Part shown: in pieces, positions 13,685 through 24,422 of the stretch
Position numbering within the stretch: position 1 is the first letter of the stretch
Layout: every line of letters begins with the position of its first letter
NCBI GenBank assembly: GCA_964557505.1
Contig: CAZLBS010000002.1
Location: forward strand, 1 to 24,422
Origin: an uncultured Nitrospiraceae bacterium
GTDB taxonomy: Bacteria > Hydrogenedentota > Hydrogenedentia > Hydrogenedentales > CAZLBS01
DNA length: 24,422 nucleotides
Direction: 5' to 3'
The notes under the pieces: generated by a model
Told to the model about the DNA's origin: nothing
What the model saw: the letters and a program-made list of their open reading frames with translations, nothing else
The model's database searches: none
Translations under genes and position numbers: made by a program

Positions 13685-14437
13685 ATGGCGGGTGTGCAAT
13701 TCCATTGGATTGGTTCAGGATCGGGGCTCAATCCCATTCTGGGCAATACGAGCTTTCGCGTTCTCACCGAAGGCGGTCCGGCCCTTGTAGTCGATTGCGG
13801 CTTTACCGTCGGTCTCAAGCTCATCGAACATGGACTCATCGATGGCGCCAACGACATCCTCGTGACCCATTGCCATGCCGACCACATAGGCGGGCTTGAA
13901 ACGCTCGCGCTGTACCACTACTTCGTGCGCCGCAACCGGGGAAGCGCCCGCCCCCGTCTCTACGTCGCCACCGATGACTTTGCACACAACCTCTGGCAGC
14001 ATTCGCTTCGTGGCGGCATGGACATCATCATCGACGAAGACGGCGCCGTGCGAGAAGGACGGCTCACCGATTACTTTGACGTGCGCACGGGACGCGTCGT
14101 CCAAATAGACGGCCTTCCAGCTGCCGAATTCGTGCCTACCCGCCACGTCGCCGCCATGGAGAATTACGCCGTACGCTTCGGCAACGGCGTCTACTACTCC
14201 GGCGACACCGTGGAGCTTCCCCCGCATGACGCCGTCGCCATCTTTCAAGATTGCCAGTTCTTCGACGGCGGCCCGTCTGAAGTCCACATATCCTACGAGC
14301 GGCTCGCACGGGAACTCCCGCCCGGCGTGAAGGCGCGCACCTATCTGGTCCATCTCGGCATGGGCTACGCCGATCGAGACCCGCAGGCCGATGGCTTCAA
14401 AGGCTTCGTGTTGCCTGGCGACACCTTTACCTTTTAG
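13685..14437 (+). CDS. Metallo-beta-lactamase-fold hydrolase (RNase Z/cyclic-nucleotide phosphodiesterase-like)
   Basis: IGSGSG, VVDCG, THCHADHIGG, TRHV, YYSGDT, EVH and LVHL motifs. Confidence 0.88.
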   Translation: MAGVQFHWIGSGSGLNPILGNTSFRVLTEGGPALVVDCGFTVGLKLIEHGLIDGANDILVTHCHADHIGGLETLALYHYFVRRNRGSARPRLYVATDDFAHNLWQHSLRGGMDIIIDEDGAVREGRLTDYFDVRTGRVVQIDGLPAAEFVPTRHVAAMENYAVRFGNGVYYSGDTVELPPHDAVAIFQDCQFFDGGPSEVHISYERLARELPPGVKARTYLVHLGMGYADRDPQADGFKGFVLPGDTFTF

Positions 14438-15263: not shown

Positions 15264-16286
15264 ATGAGTAGAAACGAAGTTTACGATCCATCTCCGCGGC
15301 CTGAAGAAGCACTGCAAGACGAACAGCTTCGCCCACAACGCCTGGATGAATTTCCGGGACAGGAAGCAATCAAGGAGAAGCTGCGCATCGCTATCGAGGC
15401 ATCTCGTCAGCGCGGCGAGCCGCTCGACCATATCCTGCTCTGCGGCCCCCCCGGCCTCGGCAAGACCACCCTCGCGCGCATTCTCGCCAATGAGATGGGC
15501 GTGGATTTCAAAAGCACCAGCGGCCCCGTCATCGAGCGGCAGGCCGACTTATCTGCCATGCTCACCAGTCTCGAAGAGCACGACGTCCTGTTTATCGATG
15601 AAATCCACCGGCTCAATCACGCGGTCGAAGAGACCCTCTACTCGGCAATGGAAGACTTCGAGGTCGACATCATGCTCGGCAAAGGCCCCACCGCGCGGTC
15701 CATGAAGATTGGGCTGAAGCCCTTTACGCTCATTGGCGCCACGACCCGGGCCGGCCTGCTCACGCCCCCGCTCCGCGCGCGCTTCGGCGATACCTGCCGA
15801 ATGAGCTTCTATTCGCCGCAAGAACTCAGCCGCATCATCCTGCGCACCGCGCGCATTAGCGGCGTGGCCATTGACCCGGACGGCAGCCTCGAAATCGCGG
15901 GACGCTCGCGCGGCACGGCCCGTATCGCCAACCGCCTCTTTCGCCGCTGCCGCGATTACGCGCAGGTGAAGGGCGACGGCGCCATCACCCAGGCCATGGC
16001 CGACAGCGCATTGTCCTTGCTCGGCACCGATGCCTTGGGCCTCGACGACATGGACCGCGCCATCATCACCGCCGTCATCGAGAAGTTCAGTGGCGGCCCC
16101 GTCGGACTGTCTAGCCTCGCCGTCGCCATCGGCGAAGAAGCTGCCACGCTGGAAGAAGTCCACGAGCCCTACCTCATCCAGATCGGCTTCCTCAAGCGCA
16201 CGCCCCAAGGCCGCGTCGCCACGCCATCCGCCTACAAGCACTTTGGCCTCGACAACCAAGCACGGGGGCAGACTTCCTTCGCCTGA
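15264..16286 (+). CDS. ruvB: Holliday junction branch migration helicase RuvB
   Basis: LRPQRLDEF, Walker [10 protein letters not shown], Walker [27 protein letters not shown] and RTPQGR. Confidence 0.98.
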
Positions 16287-16312
16287 CGAAAACGCCTCCA
16301 CGTCTAGGCCTG

Positions 16313-16340
16313 CTTGACAAACATGATAAGCCTTGACAAA
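16313..16340 (+). repeat. Direct repeat CTTGACAAA x2, period 19 nt, second copy is the promoter -35
   Basis: Exact copies at 16313-16321 and 16332-16340. Confidence 0.6.
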
Positions 16341-16362
16341 AGAGTTTAACGCCAGTTAACAT
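16333..16362 (+). promoter_or_regulatory. sigma70 promoter (TTGACA-18-TAACAT) for the uORF-DUF1559 unit
   Basis: Consensus -35 at 16333-16338, -10 TAACAT at 16357-16362, AT-rich context. Confidence 0.65.
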
Positions 16363-16423
16363 TTCGGCGTTGCCTCCTCATGCCGGTATGCAAAAACGGT
16401 GAAGCGGTGTTCAGGCACGCGTC

Positions 16424-16804
16424 ATGAAGCGGACCATTTCAAACACAAAACGGCAGCGCTCTGCAGGCCCACTCGGGTGGTCCATGATGCTGACCGCGAG
16501 CCTTGCCCTATTGTTCCTCTATGGGTTGGGCGTGTCGCATAAAGCACTGGGCCTCTGCGAGCATTCGTGCCCGCAAACCACACACCATGACGTTCATGAA
16601 CCGGCGCAGCGGGAGCACTCCCAAGGCCCCGATACCTGCGCCCTTTGCATCCTCATTCACACGCCAGGGGTGTTGGCGCAGTCCAACCCTGTTCAAATGG
16701 CGCTTGAACAAATTACTTGCCGGCCAGTTGCCTTAAGCAGCATTGCCGAGAATCGCGTCAATCTCCTCCCGCTAGGGCGCGCCCCGCCTCGAGCCTTGAG
16801 CTAA
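16424..16804 (+). CDS. DUF2946-like (CruR/CutF-type) regulatory upstream ORF with CxxC and a C-terminal RAPP ribosome-arrest motif
   Basis: N-terminal hydrophobic helix (MMLTASLALLFLYGLGVS), His-rich linker CEHSCPQTTHHDVHE...EH, CALC, and C-terminal GRAPPRALS. This layout matches the DUF2946 family. Confidence 0.8.
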   Translation: MKRTISNTKRQRSAGPLGWSMMLTASLALLFLYGLGVSHKALGLCEHSCPQTTHHDVHEPAQREHSQGPDTCALCILIHTPGVLAQSNPVQMALEQITCRPVALSSIAENRVNLLPLGRAPPRALS

Positions 16805-16924
16805 GGCTCTTCACACCTCTCAGACCACGTAACTCATCCTCCGCGCTTCCGTGTGTGTGAAGCGCGCAGTGCGCTCACAGGAACCTGACCGCGCCTGATG
16901 CACAGGCGCATTGGGAGAGATCCG

Positions 16925-17863
16925 TTGAAACGTAAAGGCTTTACACTGATCGAACTGCTGGTGGTCATCGCGATCATCGGGATCCTCGCCGCGATTCTCT
17001 TGCCCGCCTTGGCCAGGGCGCGCGAGGCGGCCCGGCGCGCCAGTTGCCAAAACAACCTCAAGCAACTCGGCCTTGTGATGAAGATGTACGCAAATGAATC
17101 CAGGGGCGAAAACTTCCCCTCTCAGAAGACGCAGAACTGTCTCAATCAAATTCATAACATGGAACAAATCTTCGAGGGCTACAGCGTGTTTCCCGAATAT
17201 CTCACCGACTGGAACGTGCTGATTTGCCCGAGCGCCTCGTTCGGCGGCGATGCCCTAACCGTATTCGATGAGGGCAACACCGAAAGCTTGTGGTTTCGCG
17301 AATGGGCTGGTTCCGGCGACGGCATCATTCAGCCGTGCGAAGTGAGCGACCATCCCTACACCTACTTCGCATGGGCGGTCACCGATACGCTTCTCGATAC
17401 CCGAGAAGAACTCGAGATCTTCGAAGAGAACATCTACCGCGAATCTGCCCCGCTCGGTCTCGGACCCGCCATCCTTGCTGACCCCAGCTTGGTGAACGAC
17501 GACTGGCAGGTGGCCCCGGGGACAGGCGTCGGCGGCGGCGACAGCATCTTCCGCTTGCGCGAAGGCATCGAGCGCTTCTTCATTACCGACATCAACAATC
17601 CAGCTGCCAGCGTCGAGGCCCAATCGACCGTGCCCGTGTGGTGGGACAACATCTCCGATGAGCCGACCCATTACAATCACGTGCCCGGCGGCGCCAACGT
17701 TGCCTACCTCGACGGTCACGTCGAATTCCTCAAGTGGACTCCTTCGAACTTCTTCACCAACGAAGAAGGCGAAGACATCCCCGTCGATCCCGAATTCCCG
17801 CTCGATGGCGGCGGCCTCATCCTCCATGAAGCCACCGACCTCTTCGGAGAACTCGCCCAATAA
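16925..17863 (+). CDS. DUF1559 type IV pilin-like protein (prepilin N-terminal cleavage/methylation domain plus H-X9-DG C-terminal motif)
   Basis: KRKG|[42 protein letters not shown]; LICPS; [19 protein letters not shown] start at 16925 with SD GGGAG at 16913-16917. Confidence 0.93.
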
Positions 17864-17904
17864 GGCTGGTAGCATTTACATCTCTCGAAGCGAACCATAC
17901 AAGC

Positions 17905-17948
17905 CGCAGCCACGTCCGGAAACGCCGGGCGTGGCTGCGTTGTCTTCT
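17905..17948 (+). terminator. Intrinsic terminator after the DUF1559 gene
   Basis: 15-bp stem CGCAGCCACGTCCGG / CCGGGCGTGGCTGCG (one G-U), 5-nt loop, then TTGTCTTCT. Confidence 0.8.
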
Positions 17949-18102
17949 GCGTCATCGAAGCATCCTTCTGCAAAGGCGGCAGGTCTTGCAGGTCGCCCGC
18001 CATGACGCCGCCGCACCGAAGGCCTCCGTCACGGCCTTAGCGTCTCCCGGCTTTGAGGGAGACCTTCAACTGGGGGCCGTGACACAAACGAAGGGATTGT
18101 TG

Positions 18103-18340: not shown

Positions 18341-18898
18341 TTAACTTGTTGGATCGTTGTCCGTTTTTAGGGCGCTGTCGATCGTTTCGACGACGTGCCG
18401 CCAGGCCGTTTCGTTTGCGCCTTCACCCTCTGGCTCGAGATAGGCGGCCTTGTGCAGCAGCACTTCCCCATCGGGAGCCATAACGTAAACGTTCGGCGAA
18501 TGCCGTTCGAAGTGCAGCGTGTTCTCAAGCGTGTCGTGCTCGAAGATGAGCAGGATGTCGTAGCCGTATTGGTCGGCGCGCTTCTTCACTTTGTTGTACG
18601 CAATGCCGTGGCCAAAGGGAATGTCCGCGCGGCGGCAGTCGCCAATGGCATAGACGTCCACTTCGCCCGCGTACTTCTTCATCAGGCGCTTGGTCCATTT
18701 GGGGGCGTCGTACTGGCTGGTCTGGTCGCCGCCGACAAACACTACCGGCTTGTCGTTCGGGAAGGAGATGGTGACCTCTTCCCGGTCCTGGTTCGTCCAC
18801 GTGAAGGAATCGAACACGCGCGCCCCGGCTGCATGCGCGGCGCTCGAAAGCAGCAGCGCGGCGAGCCAGCCCGCTATGGCGCGCGCAGGCATCAGCAC
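18341..18898 (-). CDS. Secreted hypothetical protein, possibly a thioredoxin-like fold without CxxC
   Basis: Signal peptide (AIAGWLAALLLSSAAHA). FTWTNQDREEV...PVVFV and PNVYVMAPDGEV resemble redoxin strands. GTG start overlaps the upstream stop by 1 nt; ATG 18892 is an alternative. Confidence 0.65.
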   Translation of the reverse strand: MLMPARAIAGWLAALLLSSAAHAAGARVFDSFTWTNQDREEVTISFPNDKPVVFVGGDQTSQYDAPKWTKRLMKKYAGEVDVYAIGDCRRADIPFGHGIAYNKVKKRADQYGYDILLIFEHDTLENTLHFERHSPNVYVMAPDGEVLLHKAAYLEPEGEGANETAWRHVVETIDSALKTDNDPTS

Positions 18899-20214
18899 TA
18901 GGCCGTCGTCCAGGGCTCGCGCTGCTCGCGCTCCAAATAGCTGTTGGCGTCTTCATCGTCAATGAAGCGCTCGGCCTTTGGATCCCACTTCAGCGGCCGC
19001 TCGCACCAGCGCGCGATGTTGCCCAGGTGGCACAGCACGCCGCTCGAATGCCCTACCGCAATATCGGCGATGGGCGTCTCGCGCGTGCGGATGCAATGGC
19101 ACCAATTGCCCAGGTGCATTTCCGTGTCGCCCCCGCGGCGCCGCAAATTCTGGTCCTCGCTGATGTAGAGGTGCACCCCGTCTTCGGGTATCTCGCTCGT
19201 GTCCACCCCATCGCTCGCTTCCCACTTGCCGCGTTCGATGTTGATGCGGCCTCCTTCTCCTTCGAAGAGTCCGCCGCCACCGGAGCCCTTGTCATCACAC
19301 ACGATTTCCGTGCCGTCCGCATAGCGGTAGCGCACCTGACAGCGCGGCCCCATGTGAATGCCGTCTTCAGGCGGAGCCTTATCCAATTCGGGCCACACCT
19401 CGACAGGGCCGTCCCCATCTTTCCCCAGCGCCCACTGAATCTGGTCAAAGCCATGCGCGCCCCAGCCCGTCATCTCGCCGCCGCTATATGCCACATACGA
19501 TATCCACCCAGCTTCATGTCCGCGCACGCGGGGCGGGTACAGTTCCTCGTGATACCCGCGCGGCTCCGTCTGTCCGCACCACATATCCCAGTCAATATAG
19601 TCTGGCGCCTCCTGCTCCGGCAGCGGACATTCCCAAGGGCTCGGGTAATTGGCCGCATGCACCAACTGCACCTTGCCGATGCGGCCGTTCCGAACGAGTT
19701 CGCAGGCGAATCGGTTGCGGGGATCGCTGCGCTGCTGGCTGCCCAGCTGCACGATGCGTTCATGCTTCTGGGCTGCGGTCACCATCTGACGCCCTTCCTT
19801 GATCGTCAGGCTGTGCGGCTTCTCGACATAGACATCTTTCCCCGCGCGGCAGGCGTCGATGGTGTGCTTGGCATGCCAATGATCGGGCGAGGCCACGACC
19901 ACCGCGTCGATCTCATCCCACGCAAGCATCTCCCGGTAATCCTGAAAGATGCGGGCATCTTTGCCGCGGCGCTGCCACTCTTCAAGCCGGCGCATGTTCA
20001 CATCGGCAAAGCCAACGATGCGCGCCTCCCGGGGAAGATTCATGAGCTGGCCTGCACGGCGGCCACACCCGATGTAGCCGATATTCAGCCGGCTATTCGG
20101 GGCTGCGTCGCCGGCCCAGGCGGCGCGCCCTGTGAGTATGAGAGGCCCGGCAGTTGCGGCAGAGGCGAGAAACGAGCGGCGCGACACCCGGTTCCGGTGA
20201 GCATGGTTGGACAT
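18898..20214 (-). CDS. Tat-exported Gfo/Idh/MocA family NAD(P)-dependent oxidoreductase
   Basis: Twin-arginine SRRSFL, IGCGRRA, VVVASPDHWH, YVEKP, QLGSQQRS and WGAHGFD; SD AAAGGGAG. Confidence 0.93.
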   Translation of the reverse strand: MSNHAHRNRVSRRSFLASAATAGPLILTGRAAWAGDAAPNSRLNIGYIGCGRRAGQLMNLPREARIVGFADVNMRRLEEWQRRGKDARIFQDYREMLAWDEIDAVVVASPDHWHAKHTIDACRAGKDVYVEKPHSLTIKEGRQMVTAAQKHERIVQLGSQQRSDPRNRFACELVRNGRIGKVQLVHAANYPSPWECPLPEQEAPDYIDWDMWCGQTEPRGYHEELYPPRVRGHEAGWISYVAYSGGEMTGWGAHGFDQIQWALGKDGDGPVEVWPELDKAPPEDGIHMGPRCQVRYRYADGTEIVCDDKGSGGGGLFEGEGGRINIERGKWEASDGVDTSEIPEDGVHLYISEDQNLRRRGGDTEMHLGNWCHCIRTRETPIADIAVGHSSGVLCHLGNIARWCERPLKWDPKAERFIDDEDANSYLEREQREPWTTA

Positions 20215-21171: not shown

Positions 21172-21347
21172 CGCGGTTCCAATCTAGCGCAACTTCGTCT
21201 AGGATCGTGATGCCGTGCGGCGAGTAGCGTGTTGCGCGGCGCTACGGCCCTCATTCCTCCCGCTGGTCCCCACAAACAGGGACTACCAGCGTACTCTACC
21301 ATGCAATCTCATGGAACGAAAATCAGGGGATGGGTATGGATCGAATA

Positions 21348-21380
21348 TGTTTGCCCTTAAACAATAAGCGCGTGTACAAT
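21348..21380 (+). promoter_or_regulatory. Promoter (TTGCCC-18-TACAAT) with an overlapping inverted repeat TGTTT-N6-AAACA, a candidate MarR operator
   Basis: -35 at 21351-21356, -10 at 21375-21380; inverted repeat arms at 21348-21352 and 21359-21363. Confidence 0.55.
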
Positions 21381-21446
21381 TACAAAGAACGAGGTGAGCA
21401 GGAAGGCCGCTCCTGGGAACGGCAGCTGTCGAGGAGGATTACGCGA

Positions 21447-21980
21447 GTGAATACGGTACGGTCGATTAACGAGGAATTGGACCTCGATCAGCCCATGCAA
21501 GATGTTCGGCATGAAGCCGTACTCAACATCATTCACACAGCGGGCTACCTCGCCCAAGCGGGGGCCGCACTGTTCCGGCAGTATGGACTGACCGAGGCCC
21601 AGTTCAATGTGTTGTTCGCCCTCCACTATGCCGACCATCCGCTCACGCAAACCGAACTTGGGCGGCGGCTTGTCGTCACACGCGCGAGCATCACCTCATT
21701 GATCGACAAACTGCAGGAAAAGGGGCTCGTCGAACGGAGAGCCGTCGAAGGCAACCGGCGCATCTATCATTTGGTCCGCACGGAAGCCGGCCAAGCATTG
21801 TTCGAAAAAGTGGAGCCCGTGTACCGTGAGCGCATCCATGCCGCACTGAATCACTTAGGCAAGGATGAGCAGCACGCGCTCATCCGCATGCTGGAGCGGG
21901 TCCGCGCCGGGGTAGCAGCGCTCGAAGAATCGCACCAAACTCACGCGGGCAATCACAACGGGGTCAATGCCCTGACATAA
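21447..21980 (+). CDS. MarR family transcriptional regulator
   Basis: YGLTEAQFNVL, LTQTELGRRL, RASITSLIDKLQEKGLVER, NRRIYHLVRTEAG. GTG 21447 follows a strong SD GAGGAGG. Confidence 0.92.
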   Translation: MNTVRSINEELDLDQPMQDVRHEAVLNIIHTAGYLAQAGAALFRQYGLTEAQFNVLFALHYADHPLTQTELGRRLVVTRASITSLIDKLQEKGLVERRAVEGNRRIYHLVRTEAGQALFEKVEPVYRERIHAALNHLGKDEQHALIRMLERVRAGVAALEESHQTHAGNHNGVNALT

Positions 21981-22023: not shown

Positions 22024-24422
22024 ATGGCATCGCTTGTCAACCGGCCTTTCCGGGAGGACGACCAACTGGGCTTCTGGTCCTACATCTATACGATGTTCCA
22101 GGGCTCCTTCAGCGATAACGTCTTCCGCTACGTGATTATCTTTCTGGCGACCGCGCTCTGGTATACGCAAGACGGCGCCGTCGACGAATCCGGATCCCAA
22201 ATGCTGGTCTCCGCCGGCCTCGTCATATTCAGCCTGCCCTTCATTCTCTTCGCCGGCCTCTTCGGGGCCCTGTCCGACCGCTTCAGCAAACAGCAGGTCA
22301 TGCTGTATTCGAAGTACTCCGAAGTCCTTATCATGTTGCTGGGCGCCGCTGCCCTCTATCTGCAAAACATCTACATTCTCGCCATTCTGCTCTTTTTCAT
22401 GGGCGCCCAGAGCGCCCTGTTCGGGCCAAGCAAATACGGCATCATCCCCGAGATGGTCTCCGAAAAGCGTTTGTCGGTCTCCAATGGCTACGTGCAGATG
22501 TTCACGATGGTCTCCGTCATCGCCGGCATGGCAGCCGCAGGCTGGCTATTCGAATCGCTTGGCGGCGTTGATGGCCCTCAATACCTCGGGGGCCTTTTCA
22601 TGGCCGCGCTCTCCCTAACCGGCGCGGTGACAGCGGTCTTCATCTCCCGGCCGGCCGCTGCCAATCCAGCCCGCAACATCACCATGAATCCCTTTCAAGG
22701 CATGGGCGGCTATTACAAGCAAATCTGGTCGGACCCGTGGCAATTCGTGGCGGTGTTCAATTACACCTACTTCTGGTTTGCCGCCGCGCTCATGCAACTC
22801 ATCGTCATTACCTATGGTCAAAGTACGCTCGGCCTCGATGAATTCGAGACAAGCGTCTTGACCGCAGTCCTGTCGATTGGCATCGCCTTGGGTTCCGTCC
22901 TTGCAGGATACTTGTCCCGCAACAAGATCGAAATTGGGCTGGTGCCCGTGGGCATCATGGGCATGTTCGCATGCCTTATGCTCTTGGCGGCGCCCGGCTT
23001 TGGCGTGATTCCGCCTTGGAGCGCCGTGGCGTCTGGCGTCATCCTCGCGTTCCTCGGCTTCGCCGGCGGCCTGTACGACGTGCCGCTGGCCGCAACCATT
23101 CAAAAGCGCGCCCCGCATAACACAAAGGGCGGCACCTTCGCCGCGGTGAACCTACTCACCTGGATTGGCATCTTAGGATCGGGCGCGCTCAACCTCGGAT
23201 TAGGGAGTATTGGCGTGGGAGTTTATGGCGTATTCGCAATTACGGCAGGGCTGTGCCTCATGATCGCCCTGTTCACCACCGTCTTTTACCCAATCTATCT
23301 GTTGCGCACTGGCTTGTGGATCCTGCAGAGCACGCTGTACCGCGTGCGGGTCATCGGCCGCGACAACATTCCAGAAGAAGGCCCCGTGCTCTTCGTGTCC
23401 AATCACAGTTCCCTCCTGGACACGCTCACCATTCTGGCCTCCTGCGACCGGCAGATCCGCTTTGTCATCTCGCCCGACATGCTCAACACCGGCTGGGCCA
23501 AATGGCTGGCCAAAACCTCACGGGCCATCGTGCTCGCGGAGGGCAACGCCACCACCATGCTCCAGTCGCTGCAACAGGCCAAAGACGCTCTGAGCCGGGG
23601 CGAGGCGGTCTGCGTTTTCTGCGAAGGCATGCTCGACCAGGGCGGCGAACGCCTGCATTTCGACAAGGTCTACGACCGCATACGTCACGGGCTCGACATC
23701 CCCGTTACGCCCGTGCATGTCGACCGGCTCATGGGCCGCCTCTTCATGGTGAAGAACGGCGAAGTGAAACGCATGAAAAACAAGCCGCTTCGCCACGAAC
23801 TCGTCGTCAATTACGGCGAACCCCTTCCCATCGAAACCGAACCCGTCGTCGTGCGGGCAACCGTGCAAGAGTTGAGCGCGGAAGCGGCGAAGACCAAAAA
23901 GGCCGCCATGCCCCTCATTCACCGGGCCTTCGTCAAAGCAGCGCGCAAACGCCTTGGAAAAGAAGCGCTGTCCGACGAACGCACCGGCAGCATCAATTGG
24001 TTCAAAGCGCTGGTCGGCAGCATTGCCCTCGCCCGCGCCCTCAAGAAACATATCGGCGATGACAAAATGGTCGGTCTCCTCGTGCCGCCCAGCGTCGGGG
24101 GAGCCTTGACCAACGTCGCTGTGCAGCTCATGGGCAAGACGCCGGTGAACCTCAATTACACGGCATCGGCTGCCGCGCTGAAATCCTCCGCCGAGCAATG
24201 CGAACTCAAGCACGTGCTCACGTCGACGCTCTTCCTGGAAAAGCTGCAAGCACAGCGCATGAAGGTCGACGTCCCCGCCGAGCCCATCTATTTGGAAGAC
24301 ATTCGCGAAAGCATCAAGAGTAAAGACCGCATCGTGGCCATGCTCATGGCGCTGCTCCTTCCGGTCACGCTGATCGAGAAATTGCTGGGCGCGCCCTCGG
24401 GCCGCGGACCCGGCGACCTTGC
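22024..24422 (+). CDS. aas: 3'-truncated LplT-like MFS transporter + PlsC-type acyltransferase + acyl-ACP synthetase (AMP-binding) fusion, Aas-like
   Basis: Absent from the ORF track because there is no stop in the window. ATG 22024 with SD GAGGA. The same frame gives FQGSFSDN, ALSDRFSK and LFGPSKYGIIPE (MFS), NHSSLLD at 23401 (HxxxxD acyltransferase), and VGLLVPPSVGG...VNLNYT (adenylation domain). Confidence 0.9.
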   Translation, partial: MASLVNRPFREDDQLGFWSYIYTMFQGSFSDNVFRYVIIFLATALWYTQDGAVDESGSQMLVSAGLVIFSLPFILFAGLFGALSDRFSKQQVMLYSKYSEVLIMLLGAAALYLQNIYILAILLFFMGAQSALFGPSKYGIIPEMVSEKRLSVSNGYVQMFTMVSVIAGMAAAGWLFESLGGVDGPQYLGGLFMAALSLTGAVTAVFISRPAAANPARNITMNPFQGMGGYYKQIWSDPWQFVAVFNYTYFWFAAALMQLIVITYGQSTLGLDEFETSVLTAVLSIGIALGSVLAGYLSRNKIEIGLVPVGIMGMFACLMLLAAPGFGVIPPWSAVASGVILAFLGFAGGLYDVPLAATIQKRAPHNTKGGTFAAVNLLTWIGILGSGALNLGLGSIGVGVYGVFAITAGLCLMIALFTTVFYPIYLLRTGLWILQSTLYRVRVIGRDNIPEEGPVLFVSNHSSLLDTLTILASCDRQIRFVISPDMLNTGWAKWLAKTSRAIVLAEGNATTMLQSLQQAKDALSRGEAVCVFCEGMLDQGGERLHFDKVYDRIRHGLDIPVTPVHVDRLMGRLFMVKNGEVKRMKNKPLRHELVVNYGEPLPIETEPVVVRATVQELSAEAAKTKKAAMPLIHRAFVKAARKRLGKEALSDERTGSINWFKALVGSIALARALKKHIGDDKMVGLLVPPSVGGALTNVAVQLMGKTPVNLNYTASAAALKSSAEQCELKHVLTSTLFLEKLQAQRMKVDVPAEPIYLEDIRESIKSKDRIVAMLMALLLPVTLIEKLLGAPSGRGPGDL

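Follow-up and report, generated by a model that had tools for sequence, protein, structure and literature searches.

A candidate DUF2946-class arrest-peptide leader ahead of a DUF1559 pilin-like gene in a Hydrogenedentota genome

We analyzed a stretch of 24,422 nucleotides (nt), hereafter the window (contig CAZLBS010000002.1, assembly GCA_964557505.1), from an uncultured bacterium of the Hydrogenedentota, in which a small open reading frame (ORF) ending close to an Arg-Ala-Pro-Pro (RAPP) motif lies ahead of a gene for a prepilin-type protein of the DUF1559/H-X9-DG family. Few families without a known function are as large as DUF1559/H-X9-DG in Planctomycetota, Verrucomicrobiota, Hydrogenedentota, and allied phyla, where a genome carries dozens of such genes. 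The original prediction, made from the DNA letters, had read the small ORF as a leader and described a promoter, a 126-residue ORF with a transmembrane (TM) helix and CxxxC, CALC, and RAPP motifs, a 120-nt gap, the DUF1559 gene, and a terminator; all of these were present where it had placed them. The unit consists of the following features.

16333 to 16362, plus strand: sigma-70-like promoter, TTGACA-18 nt-TAACAT, with 10 of 12 matches
16346 to 16359, plus strand: TTAAC-N4-GTTAA, an inverted repeat lying between the two promoter hexamers (-35 and -10), a candidate operator
16424 to 16804, plus strand: leader ORF of 126 codons plus stop, a DUF2946-like arrest-peptide candidate (Pfam PF11162 match and an alignment of 57 leaders)
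16472 to 16543, plus strand: codons of the N-terminal signal anchor or TM helix, about residues 17 to 40, after a Lys/Arg-rich N-region (from hydropathy and an AlphaFold2 [AF2] model)
16556 to 16570, plus strand: CEHSC (Cys45-x3-Cys49), followed by five His in a His-rich linker (from the sequence)
16637 to 16648, plus strand: CALC (Cys72-x2-Cys75), the invariant CxxC, 43 residues before RAPP (present in 57 of 57 leaders)
16761 to 16771, plus strand: pyrimidine-rich segment AUCUCCUCCC, resembling an anti-Shine-Dalgarno sequence by predicted pairing, just 5' of the Gly-Arg-Ala-Pro-Pro codons
16778 to 16789, plus strand: RAPP codons (Arg119-Ala-Pro-Pro122), the predicted stall site, with Pro121 in the ribosomal P site and Pro122 in the A site
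16805 to 16924, plus strand: intergenic region of 120 nt that contains two GC hairpins and, at about 16839 to 16846, a second CCUCC element
16913 to 16919, plus strand: Shine-Dalgarno (SD) sequence GGGAGAG of the DUF1559 gene, 5 nt before TTG 16925
16925 to 17863, plus strand: DUF1559/H-X9-DG prepilin-type (pseudopilin-like) gene, 312 codons plus stop (from profile matches)
17905 to 17949, plus strand: intrinsic terminator with a 15-bp stem (17905 to 17939; 12 of its pairs are G-C), a loop of 5 nt, and then a tail rich in T

The unit is preceded by ruvB and followed by a convergent uncharacterized gene and a Gfo/Idh/MocA oxidoreductase gene; these flanking genes are unrelated to it, and the leader and the DUF1559 gene therefore make up a self-contained two-gene unit. 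The site at 16333 to 16362 was the only promoter-like site between 16150 and 18400, where shuffled sequence gave a mean of 0.5, and an Rfam scan of 16250 to 18000 returned only two irrelevant matches below threshold, hence no known riboswitch. In the leader, the signal anchor was judged by hydropathy and the AF2 helix, without a signal-peptide predictor; the Kyte-Doolittle peak over 19 residues was 1.68, and the modeled helix spanned residues 16 to 42. The RAPP motif ends four residues before the stop codon, its Pro codons occupying 16784 to 16789. The downstream gene most plausibly starts at TTG 16925, since the SD sequence lies ahead of it and translation from this codon gives the short prepilin leader MKRKG/FTLIELL seen in homologs. 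Its prepilin motif, G/FTLIELL with Glu at +5, matched the N-methylation models PF07963 (expect value [E] 2.3e-9) and TIGR02532 (E 2.7e-9). The DUF1559 model PF07596 scored 51.3 bits against a cut-off of 23.3, the alignment being confined to the N-terminal part of the model, and the H-X9-DG model TIGR04294 scored 25.9 bits against a cut-off of 19; His252, Asp263, Gly264, and His265 were invariant across 67 DUF1559 sequences.

The only Pfam family matched by the leader ORF was PF11162 (DUF2946), at E 3.7e-4 with model positions 8 to 117 of 117 aligned; the score of 21.7 bits lies below the family's gathering cut-off of 23.7. Among the 57 leader relatives, 24 matched PF11162 at E <= 0.01 (best E, 1.2e-6), and one homolog, P0002, passed the cut-off with 24.6 bits. 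Judged by these profile matches, the leader ORF appears to be a divergent relative of the copper-sensing DUF2946 leaders CruR and CutF, which supports the earlier description of a DUF2946-like CxxC/RAPP leader. The family is hard to see with ordinary searches. A word-indexed protein search with the leader gave no match; an exhaustive phmmer search of 1.8 billion representatives returned only two remote metagenomic proteins, both of which keep the CxxC and GRAPP and are followed, 81 and 111 nt downstream, by a GFTLIELL prepilin-type gene. A single-sequence search of 60 relatives gave noise only, apart from one paralogue in the leader's own genome, and the family surfaced only through a profile made from paralogues of that genome.

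Those paralogues came from a pattern scan of the genome, which found five leaders before DUF1559 genes, on contigs C2 (the window), C91, C219, C501, and C626. A profile built from the five added one on C517 (RDPP, before a DUF1559 gene) and one on C584 (RAPP, before an ABC ATPase gene), giving seven leaders in this genome, six of which precede a DUF1559 gene. A nine-member profile (alignment A2) then matched 34 of 135 Hydrogenedentota genomes. In the loci fetched, a CxxC...RxPP ORF was present in 28 of 29, followed by a DUF1559-type gene in 26 of the 28; a count of all leaders in the loci fetched from other Hydrogenedentota genomes came to 49, and for 46 of these a pilin-type gene lies no more than 750 nt away. 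The pairing is thus recurrent, as the original prediction had required, at six loci in this genome and at most leaders elsewhere. Some variants were seen. Two family members head ABC transporter genes, the one on C584 (L029, 353 to 757), before the ABC ATPase gene, and one at L041, before a MacB/LolD-like ATPase and an FtsX-type permease. Tandem pairs of leaders stand before a single DUF1559 gene at L039, L043, and L053, and at L069 (2061 to 2363) the first of two tandem units carries a leader-like ORF that has lost the CxxC.

The possibility that the ORF is a chance reading frame or annotation artifact of GC-rich DNA comes to mind because long spurious ORFs are common in a genome of 61% G+C and because the word-indexed search was empty. 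Scanning the assembly in six frames (4.28 Mb, 813 contigs, 84% complete) for CxxC-(42 to 47 residues)-R[AGSDP]PP-(<=12 residues)-stop gave eight matches, six of them within 750 nt upstream of a prepilin-type gene; of the other two, one lies before an ABC ATPase gene and one, on contig C136, was discarded as an off-frame low-complexity artifact. A control pattern in which [AKQEL] replaced the Arg also gave eight matches, none before a prepilin-type gene. The association of leader and pilin-type gene is far beyond chance. Against an artifact also stand the seven paralogues in this genome and about 50 homologs with the same motif geometry, and the fact that codon changes at the invariant residues are synonymous; we give this explanation practically no weight.

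The leaders share very little apart from their motifs. In an alignment of 57 of them (A3), mean column identity was 18%, and the only invariant residues were Cys72, Cys75, Arg119, Pro121, and Pro122, so that CxxC and R-x-P-P are the sole residues kept in all homologs; the original prediction had asked that CxxC and RAPP be conserved, and they are, save that the Ala position varies. Cys45 was invariant in the nine-member alignment and not in that of 57. The codons of the invariant residues differ synonymously (Cys is written TGC or TGT, Arg in four ways, and Pro with each of its four codons), so that selection acts on the peptide. Using a pattern that permitted 38 to 52 residues between CxxC and RxPP, we found among the 49 leaders from other genomes a spacing of 44 in 36, 45 in seven, 43 in four, 42 in one, and 47 in one; it is 43 in the window and 47 in the C626 leader. 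The tail after RxPP is one to nine residues long in the same 49. For the residue after the Arg, where the pattern allowed anything, the counts were Ala 19, Gly 17, Asp 8, Ser 3, and Pro 2. In the arrest peptides ApdA and ApdP, Gly is fully permissive for arrest at this position, and Ser, Asp, and Pro partly retain it (PMC12992588); the set observed here, A/G/D/S/P, is exactly the published arrest-retaining set.

These patterns show that constraint falls on the nascent peptide, that is, on the motifs and their spacing, and not on a folded protein. They bear directly on another explanation, in which the ORF encodes a trans-acting small secreted or membrane-anchored protein, a Cys/His metal-binding partner or chaperone of the DUF1559 protein, and RxPP has no regulatory role. 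Such a partner would account for the adjacency of the two genes at the paired loci and for Cys- and His-rich segments behind a signal anchor. It sits poorly with a sequence that has five invariant residues and 18% mean identity, and whose predicted fold is limited to the TM helix, the only confident part of an AF2 model computed from the 57-sequence alignment (predicted local distance difference test [pLDDT] 67, predicted template-modeling score [pTM] 0.38). Nor would it explain why spacing is fixed relative to a C-terminal RxPP, why the residue after Arg is confined to the arrest-permissive set, or why RxPP, which is strongly avoided in ordinary proteins (PMC12992588), is kept. The leaders also diverge faster than their partner genes: in the C2/C91 paralogue pair, the DUF1559 proteins are 78% identical and the leaders 27%. 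CruR and CutF, moreover, work exclusively in cis, and neither is detectable as a mature protein (PMC9426467, PMC9973294). We therefore hold a trans-acting partner to be very improbable.

On the side of the downstream gene, the leader travels with one clade of DUF1559 genes. The assembly carries about 46 DUF1559-like genes, almost all of one subfamily; in other genomes, leaders accompany the DUF1559 genes most similar to that of the window, and less similar ones almost never have them. In a tree of 150 DUF1559 proteins, the window gene falls in a clade of 45 members (Shimodaira-Hasegawa-like support, 96), of which 35 have a leader; some of the seemingly leaderless members are tandem copies adjoining a leader-bearing unit. 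Leader presence required 14 to 16 changes on this tree, compared with about 37 with shuffled labels, a difference to be read with the caveat that relatives share labels and that half of the loci were collected through leader searches. The residues that are conserved within the leader-linked group and not in the rest, candidates for a binding site, include Cys68, Asp111, Glu135, and His297 (counting from the Gly of GFTLIELL). The AF2 model of the DUF1559 protein (pLDDT 92.7, pTM 0.87) has a long N-terminal pilin helix and an alpha/beta domain. Foldseek found no match for this model in the PDB (best E, 4.4), and a PDB sequence search with the protein gave matches to the N-terminal pilin helix only, so the globular domain appears to have no solved relative in these searches. 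All 30 complete relatives have a prepilin peptidase; none was found in the 84%-complete assembly itself, likely because the assembly is incomplete.

Taking these observations together, we put at roughly three in four the probability that ORF 16424-16804 is a translated, cis-acting arrest-peptide leader of the DUF2946 class for the DUF1559 gene; stalling, the ligand, the direction of the response, and the coupling step are all inferred. As we envision it, the N-terminal signal anchor would take the nascent chain to the membrane, and the ribosome would stall at Arg-Ala-Pro-Pro, Pro121 occupying the P site and Pro122 the A site, an assignment made because the CruR stall toeprint places its two Pro codons in these sites (PMC12992588). 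At the stall, the invariant CxxC, 43 to 44 residues back, would have newly emerged from the exit tunnel, a position inferred from the known tunnel length. The Cys pair, on taking up a thiophilic metal or otherwise changing state, would then alter the duration of the stall, and stall duration would set expression of the DUF1559 gene 120 nt downstream. A Cys pair lying just outside the tunnel at that moment would explain the fixed spacing, and it argues against periplasmic sensing at that point. In CruR, the CxxC-RAPP spacing of 45 is kept within one to two residues, and altering it disturbs regulation (PMC9426467).

Whether a metal is the cue can be weighed against a second possibility for an arrest leader, namely, that it senses envelope oxidative folding (a disulfide at CxxC and Cys45) or the force of Sec or signal recognition particle (SRP) translocation, as SecM, VemP, and ApdA/ApdP do, so that a pilin-like protein that itself contains Cys is made in step with the capacity for export or folding. 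The signal anchor would suit such a role, RAPP leaders are known above all for monitoring Sec and YidC, the survey in PMC12992588 also places them upstream of DsbA and thioredoxin genes, the DUF1559 proteins themselves have conserved Cys (Cys41 and Cys101 invariant, Cys72 nearly so), and the flanks of the units in other genomes show no metal theme. The sequence kinship of the leader, however, is to DUF2946 and not to Sec monitors, and the invariant CxxC at 43 to 45 residues matches that of CruR, in which changing CxxC to SxxS impairs the copper response (PMC9426467). In addition, a CxxC 44 residues from the peptidyl-transferase center would be barely out of the tunnel and not yet in the periplasm, where DsbA acts, and the downstream gene is not sec, yidC, or dsb. 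On balance, we think a nonmetal cue unlikely. Metal sensing by the leader is suggested mainly by homology and by the invariant CxxC, with gene context adding to this at only two paralogous loci.

The first of these loci, on C501 (L025, 73 to 3152), carries a leader with CAFC and RSPP and, behind it on the same strand, genes for a DUF1559 protein, a DUF4198 protein (E 1.4e-29), and a His-rich FmdE-like protein (E 1e-5), and is the clearest metal-type context of any leader-DUF1559 unit. At the second, on C626 (L028, 253 to 2404), a leader (CFTC, RAPP) and DUF1559 gene are divergent from a Fur-family gene (PF01475, E 7.5e-12) and a cobW/COG0523 GTPase gene (E 1.2e-55), a neighborhood resembling a zinc regulon. 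A palindrome, TGCAAG-N3-CTTGCA, lies in the shared intergenic region at C626. Upstream of the leader start, at 78 or 79 nt and between the -35 and -10 hexamers, an inverted repeat of the form TTAAS-N4-STTAA occurs at two of the seven leader loci of this genome, the window and C501 (L025, about 36 to 49); a check of 54 further leader loci turned up no other copy. It is a putative operator that the two loci may share for some regulator.

For the coupling between stall and downstream gene, two options would have precedent. In the first, as in CutF, the stalled ribosome would change the pairing of a sequestered SD sequence. The SD of the window is predicted to be 97% paired in free mRNA, mainly with CUCCUCCC at 16763 to 16770, just 5' of the GRAPP codons, and pair probabilities between 16761 to 16771 and the downstream SD were 0.6 to 1.0 in the folding prediction. 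SD pairing was 0.66 behind leaders and 0.56 at leaderless DUF1559 genes (p about 9e-4, with the loci nonindependent), and across loci about 40% of the SD partner probability fell at 0 to +30 nt from the P-site Pro codon. In the second option, as in CruR, the stalled ribosome would shield C-rich intergenic RNA from Rho. The window gap is 34% C and 27.5% G, with 22 C and 13 G in its first 60 nt; at 38 loci, the median gap is 123 nt, and C makes up 30% compared with 24.5% G, against a genome ratio of 1.0. The genome has genes for both Rho and EF-P. Shielding from Rho is compatible with the long gaps, the modest excess of C over G, and the presence of rho.

Several results count against this picture of a metal-responsive arrest leader. 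When the stall footprint was forced open in folding, the window SD was still 86 to 88% paired, through the second CCUCC of the gap; across 42 loci, mean SD pairing fell from 0.64 to 0.58, compared with 0.62 for a control footprint elsewhere in the leader (Wilcoxon p 0.09), and only one of the 42 lost 0.3 or more of its SD pairing. Stall-dependent unmasking of the SD was thus not borne out by footprint-constrained folding, either in the window or at the 42 loci, and it is kept here as one of the two possible couplings. The finding that cognate duplexes between the SD and the RxPP region are predicted to be stronger than noncognate ones (-12.4 and -10.9 kcal/mol, with 0 of 5,000 permutations as strong) speaks for an RNA switch, but the comparison is confounded by differences in base composition between lineages. 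The bias of C over G in the gaps is modest (median C/G, 1.23), the ribosome-binding site of the leader is weak, and its PF11162 score, as given above, falls short of the gathering cut-off. Finally, the flanks of the units in 14 other genomes were heterogeneous, with no recurring family and nothing metal-related; the idea that neighboring genes would name the metal was dropped for want of a recurring family across these 14 genomes.

If the DUF1559 gene is indeed under the control of a DUF2946-class leader, its product may be asked what it does at the envelope. A Plug domain of TonB-dependent receptors was not found in the 84%-complete assembly, and Plug domains occurred in only 41 of 135 Hydrogenedentota genomes; the genome has at least 17 T2SSE-type ATPase and seven secretin matches above cut-offs. 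One might imagine that this clade of DUF1559 proteins is a metal-regulated envelope device, perhaps for pseudopilus-borne metal capture or handling with the many type II secretion system (T2SS)-type ATPases and secretins of this phylum, filling in Hydrogenedentota, where TonB-dependent receptors are scarce, the regulatory slot that such receptors occupy behind CruR in Proteobacteria; we offer this tentatively and consider it doubtful. Were it true, it would be the first functional assignment within the very large DUF1559 family.

A few other features of the window deserve mention in their own right. A metallo-beta-lactamase-fold protein encoded at 13685 to 14437 (plus strand) exceeds the Pfam cut-off for the anti-Pycsar protein Apyc1 (70.1 versus 50 bits); it lies in a housekeeping context, between an uncharacterized gene and rsmE. 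An ORF at 22024 to 24420 (plus strand), which runs past the end of the window, fuses a major facilitator superfamily (MFS) transporter, an acyltransferase, and an AMP-binding domain and resembles the LplT-Aas fusion of lysophospholipid recycling, with a MarR-family regulator (21330 to 21980) directly upstream. On the minus strand, 18341 to 18898 encodes a secreted protein of 185 residues with no Pfam match, overlapping by one base the start of a Gfo/Idh/MocA oxidoreductase gene with a twin-arginine translocation (Tat) signal (18898 to 20214); an ORF that, judged by its N-terminal sequence only, is a similar Tat-signal Gfo/Idh/MocA-like one adjoins the leader unit at L069.

The original prediction had supposed that the pairing of such leaders with DUF1559 genes was undescribed, and this was not borne out. 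Source data accompanying Fujiwara et al. (2025, EMBO J, PMC12992588) list the class "DUF1559 domain-containing protein" as enriched downstream of RAPP and RGPP small ORFs, with 112 RAPP versus 68 AAPP ORFs (6.5-fold; adjusted p about 1e-31) and 116 RGPP versus 24 AGPP ORFs (8.7-fold); the small ORFs mostly have signal peptides. The main text of that paper nowhere mentions DUF1559 or pilins, the class appearing in the data tables only, and neither PMC9426467 nor PMC9973294 mentions a DUF1559 or pilin-type output in its text or supplements. The pairing is therefore known from a 2025 data table, and the class of mechanism is known as well. For this pairing, PMC12992588 is a survey with no CxxC, spacing, DUF2946, clade, or RNA analysis and no experiment, and the RDPP, RSPP, and RPPP leaders (13 of the 49 here) fall outside its RAPP/RGPP criteria. 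What is added here is a Hydrogenedentota family with seven copies in one genome, its relation to DUF2946, the spacing of 43 to 45, the A/G/D/S/P rule, the restriction to one DUF1559 clade, and the negative result on simple SD unmasking.

The leader family widens the documented outputs of RAPP-type leaders and supplies natural RDPP, RSPP, and RPPP cores that surveys for RAPP/RGPP motifs miss. A CruR/CutF-type leader before a DUF1559 clade gives a concrete handle on the inducing signal, which would in turn point to the function of the protein. The value of this is that of a testable lead, not of a new principle.

Among known systems, the Sec-monitoring arrest peptides ApdA/ApdP and SecM (RAPP and RAGP) share with these leaders a C-terminal R-A/G-P-P core, a localization signal, and control of a downstream gene; they differ in that the downstream gene here is DUF1559 (an ABC transporter gene in two members) and not sec or yidC, and in the conserved CxxC and DUF2946 kinship of the leaders described here. 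CutF-cutO of Rhodobacter capsulatus (Ozturk et al. 2023, PMC9973294; bioRxiv 10.1101/2025.02.05.636593) is likewise a small exported leader with a Cys motif and a C-terminal Pro-rich stall site that acts on the adjacent gene, whose ribosome-binding site is predicted to be sequestered in RNA. CutF, however, has CxxxC, a short gap, a single stem-loop that is melted on stalling, and a multicopper oxidase as output, whereas a modeled stall leaves the window SD paired. The DUF2946 prototype is CruR (Bp2923), which stands before bfrG in Bordetella pertussis (described by Roy et al. 2022, PMC9426467; its arrest and toeprint are shown in PMC12992588). Like the window leader, CruR has an N-terminal export signal, is the first gene of its unit, and is poorly structured; its CxxC-RAPP distance is 45, compared with 43 to 44 here. 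In both, RAPP lies three to four residues before the stop, and the gap that follows is long, 162 nt in Bordetella and 120 nt in the window, and has more C than G. The two part ways in their output, which in Bordetella is a TonB-dependent transporter and a PepSY_TM protein and here a DUF1559 prepilin-type protein, in the extra CxxxC, the His-rich linker, and the sub-cut-off PF11162 score of the window leader, and in the latter's origin from the Hydrogenedentota, with seven copies in one genome. Anatomically, the unit comes closest to CruR, with which it has in common the CxxC, its spacing, the placement of RAPP, and a long gap; CutF is a less good match.

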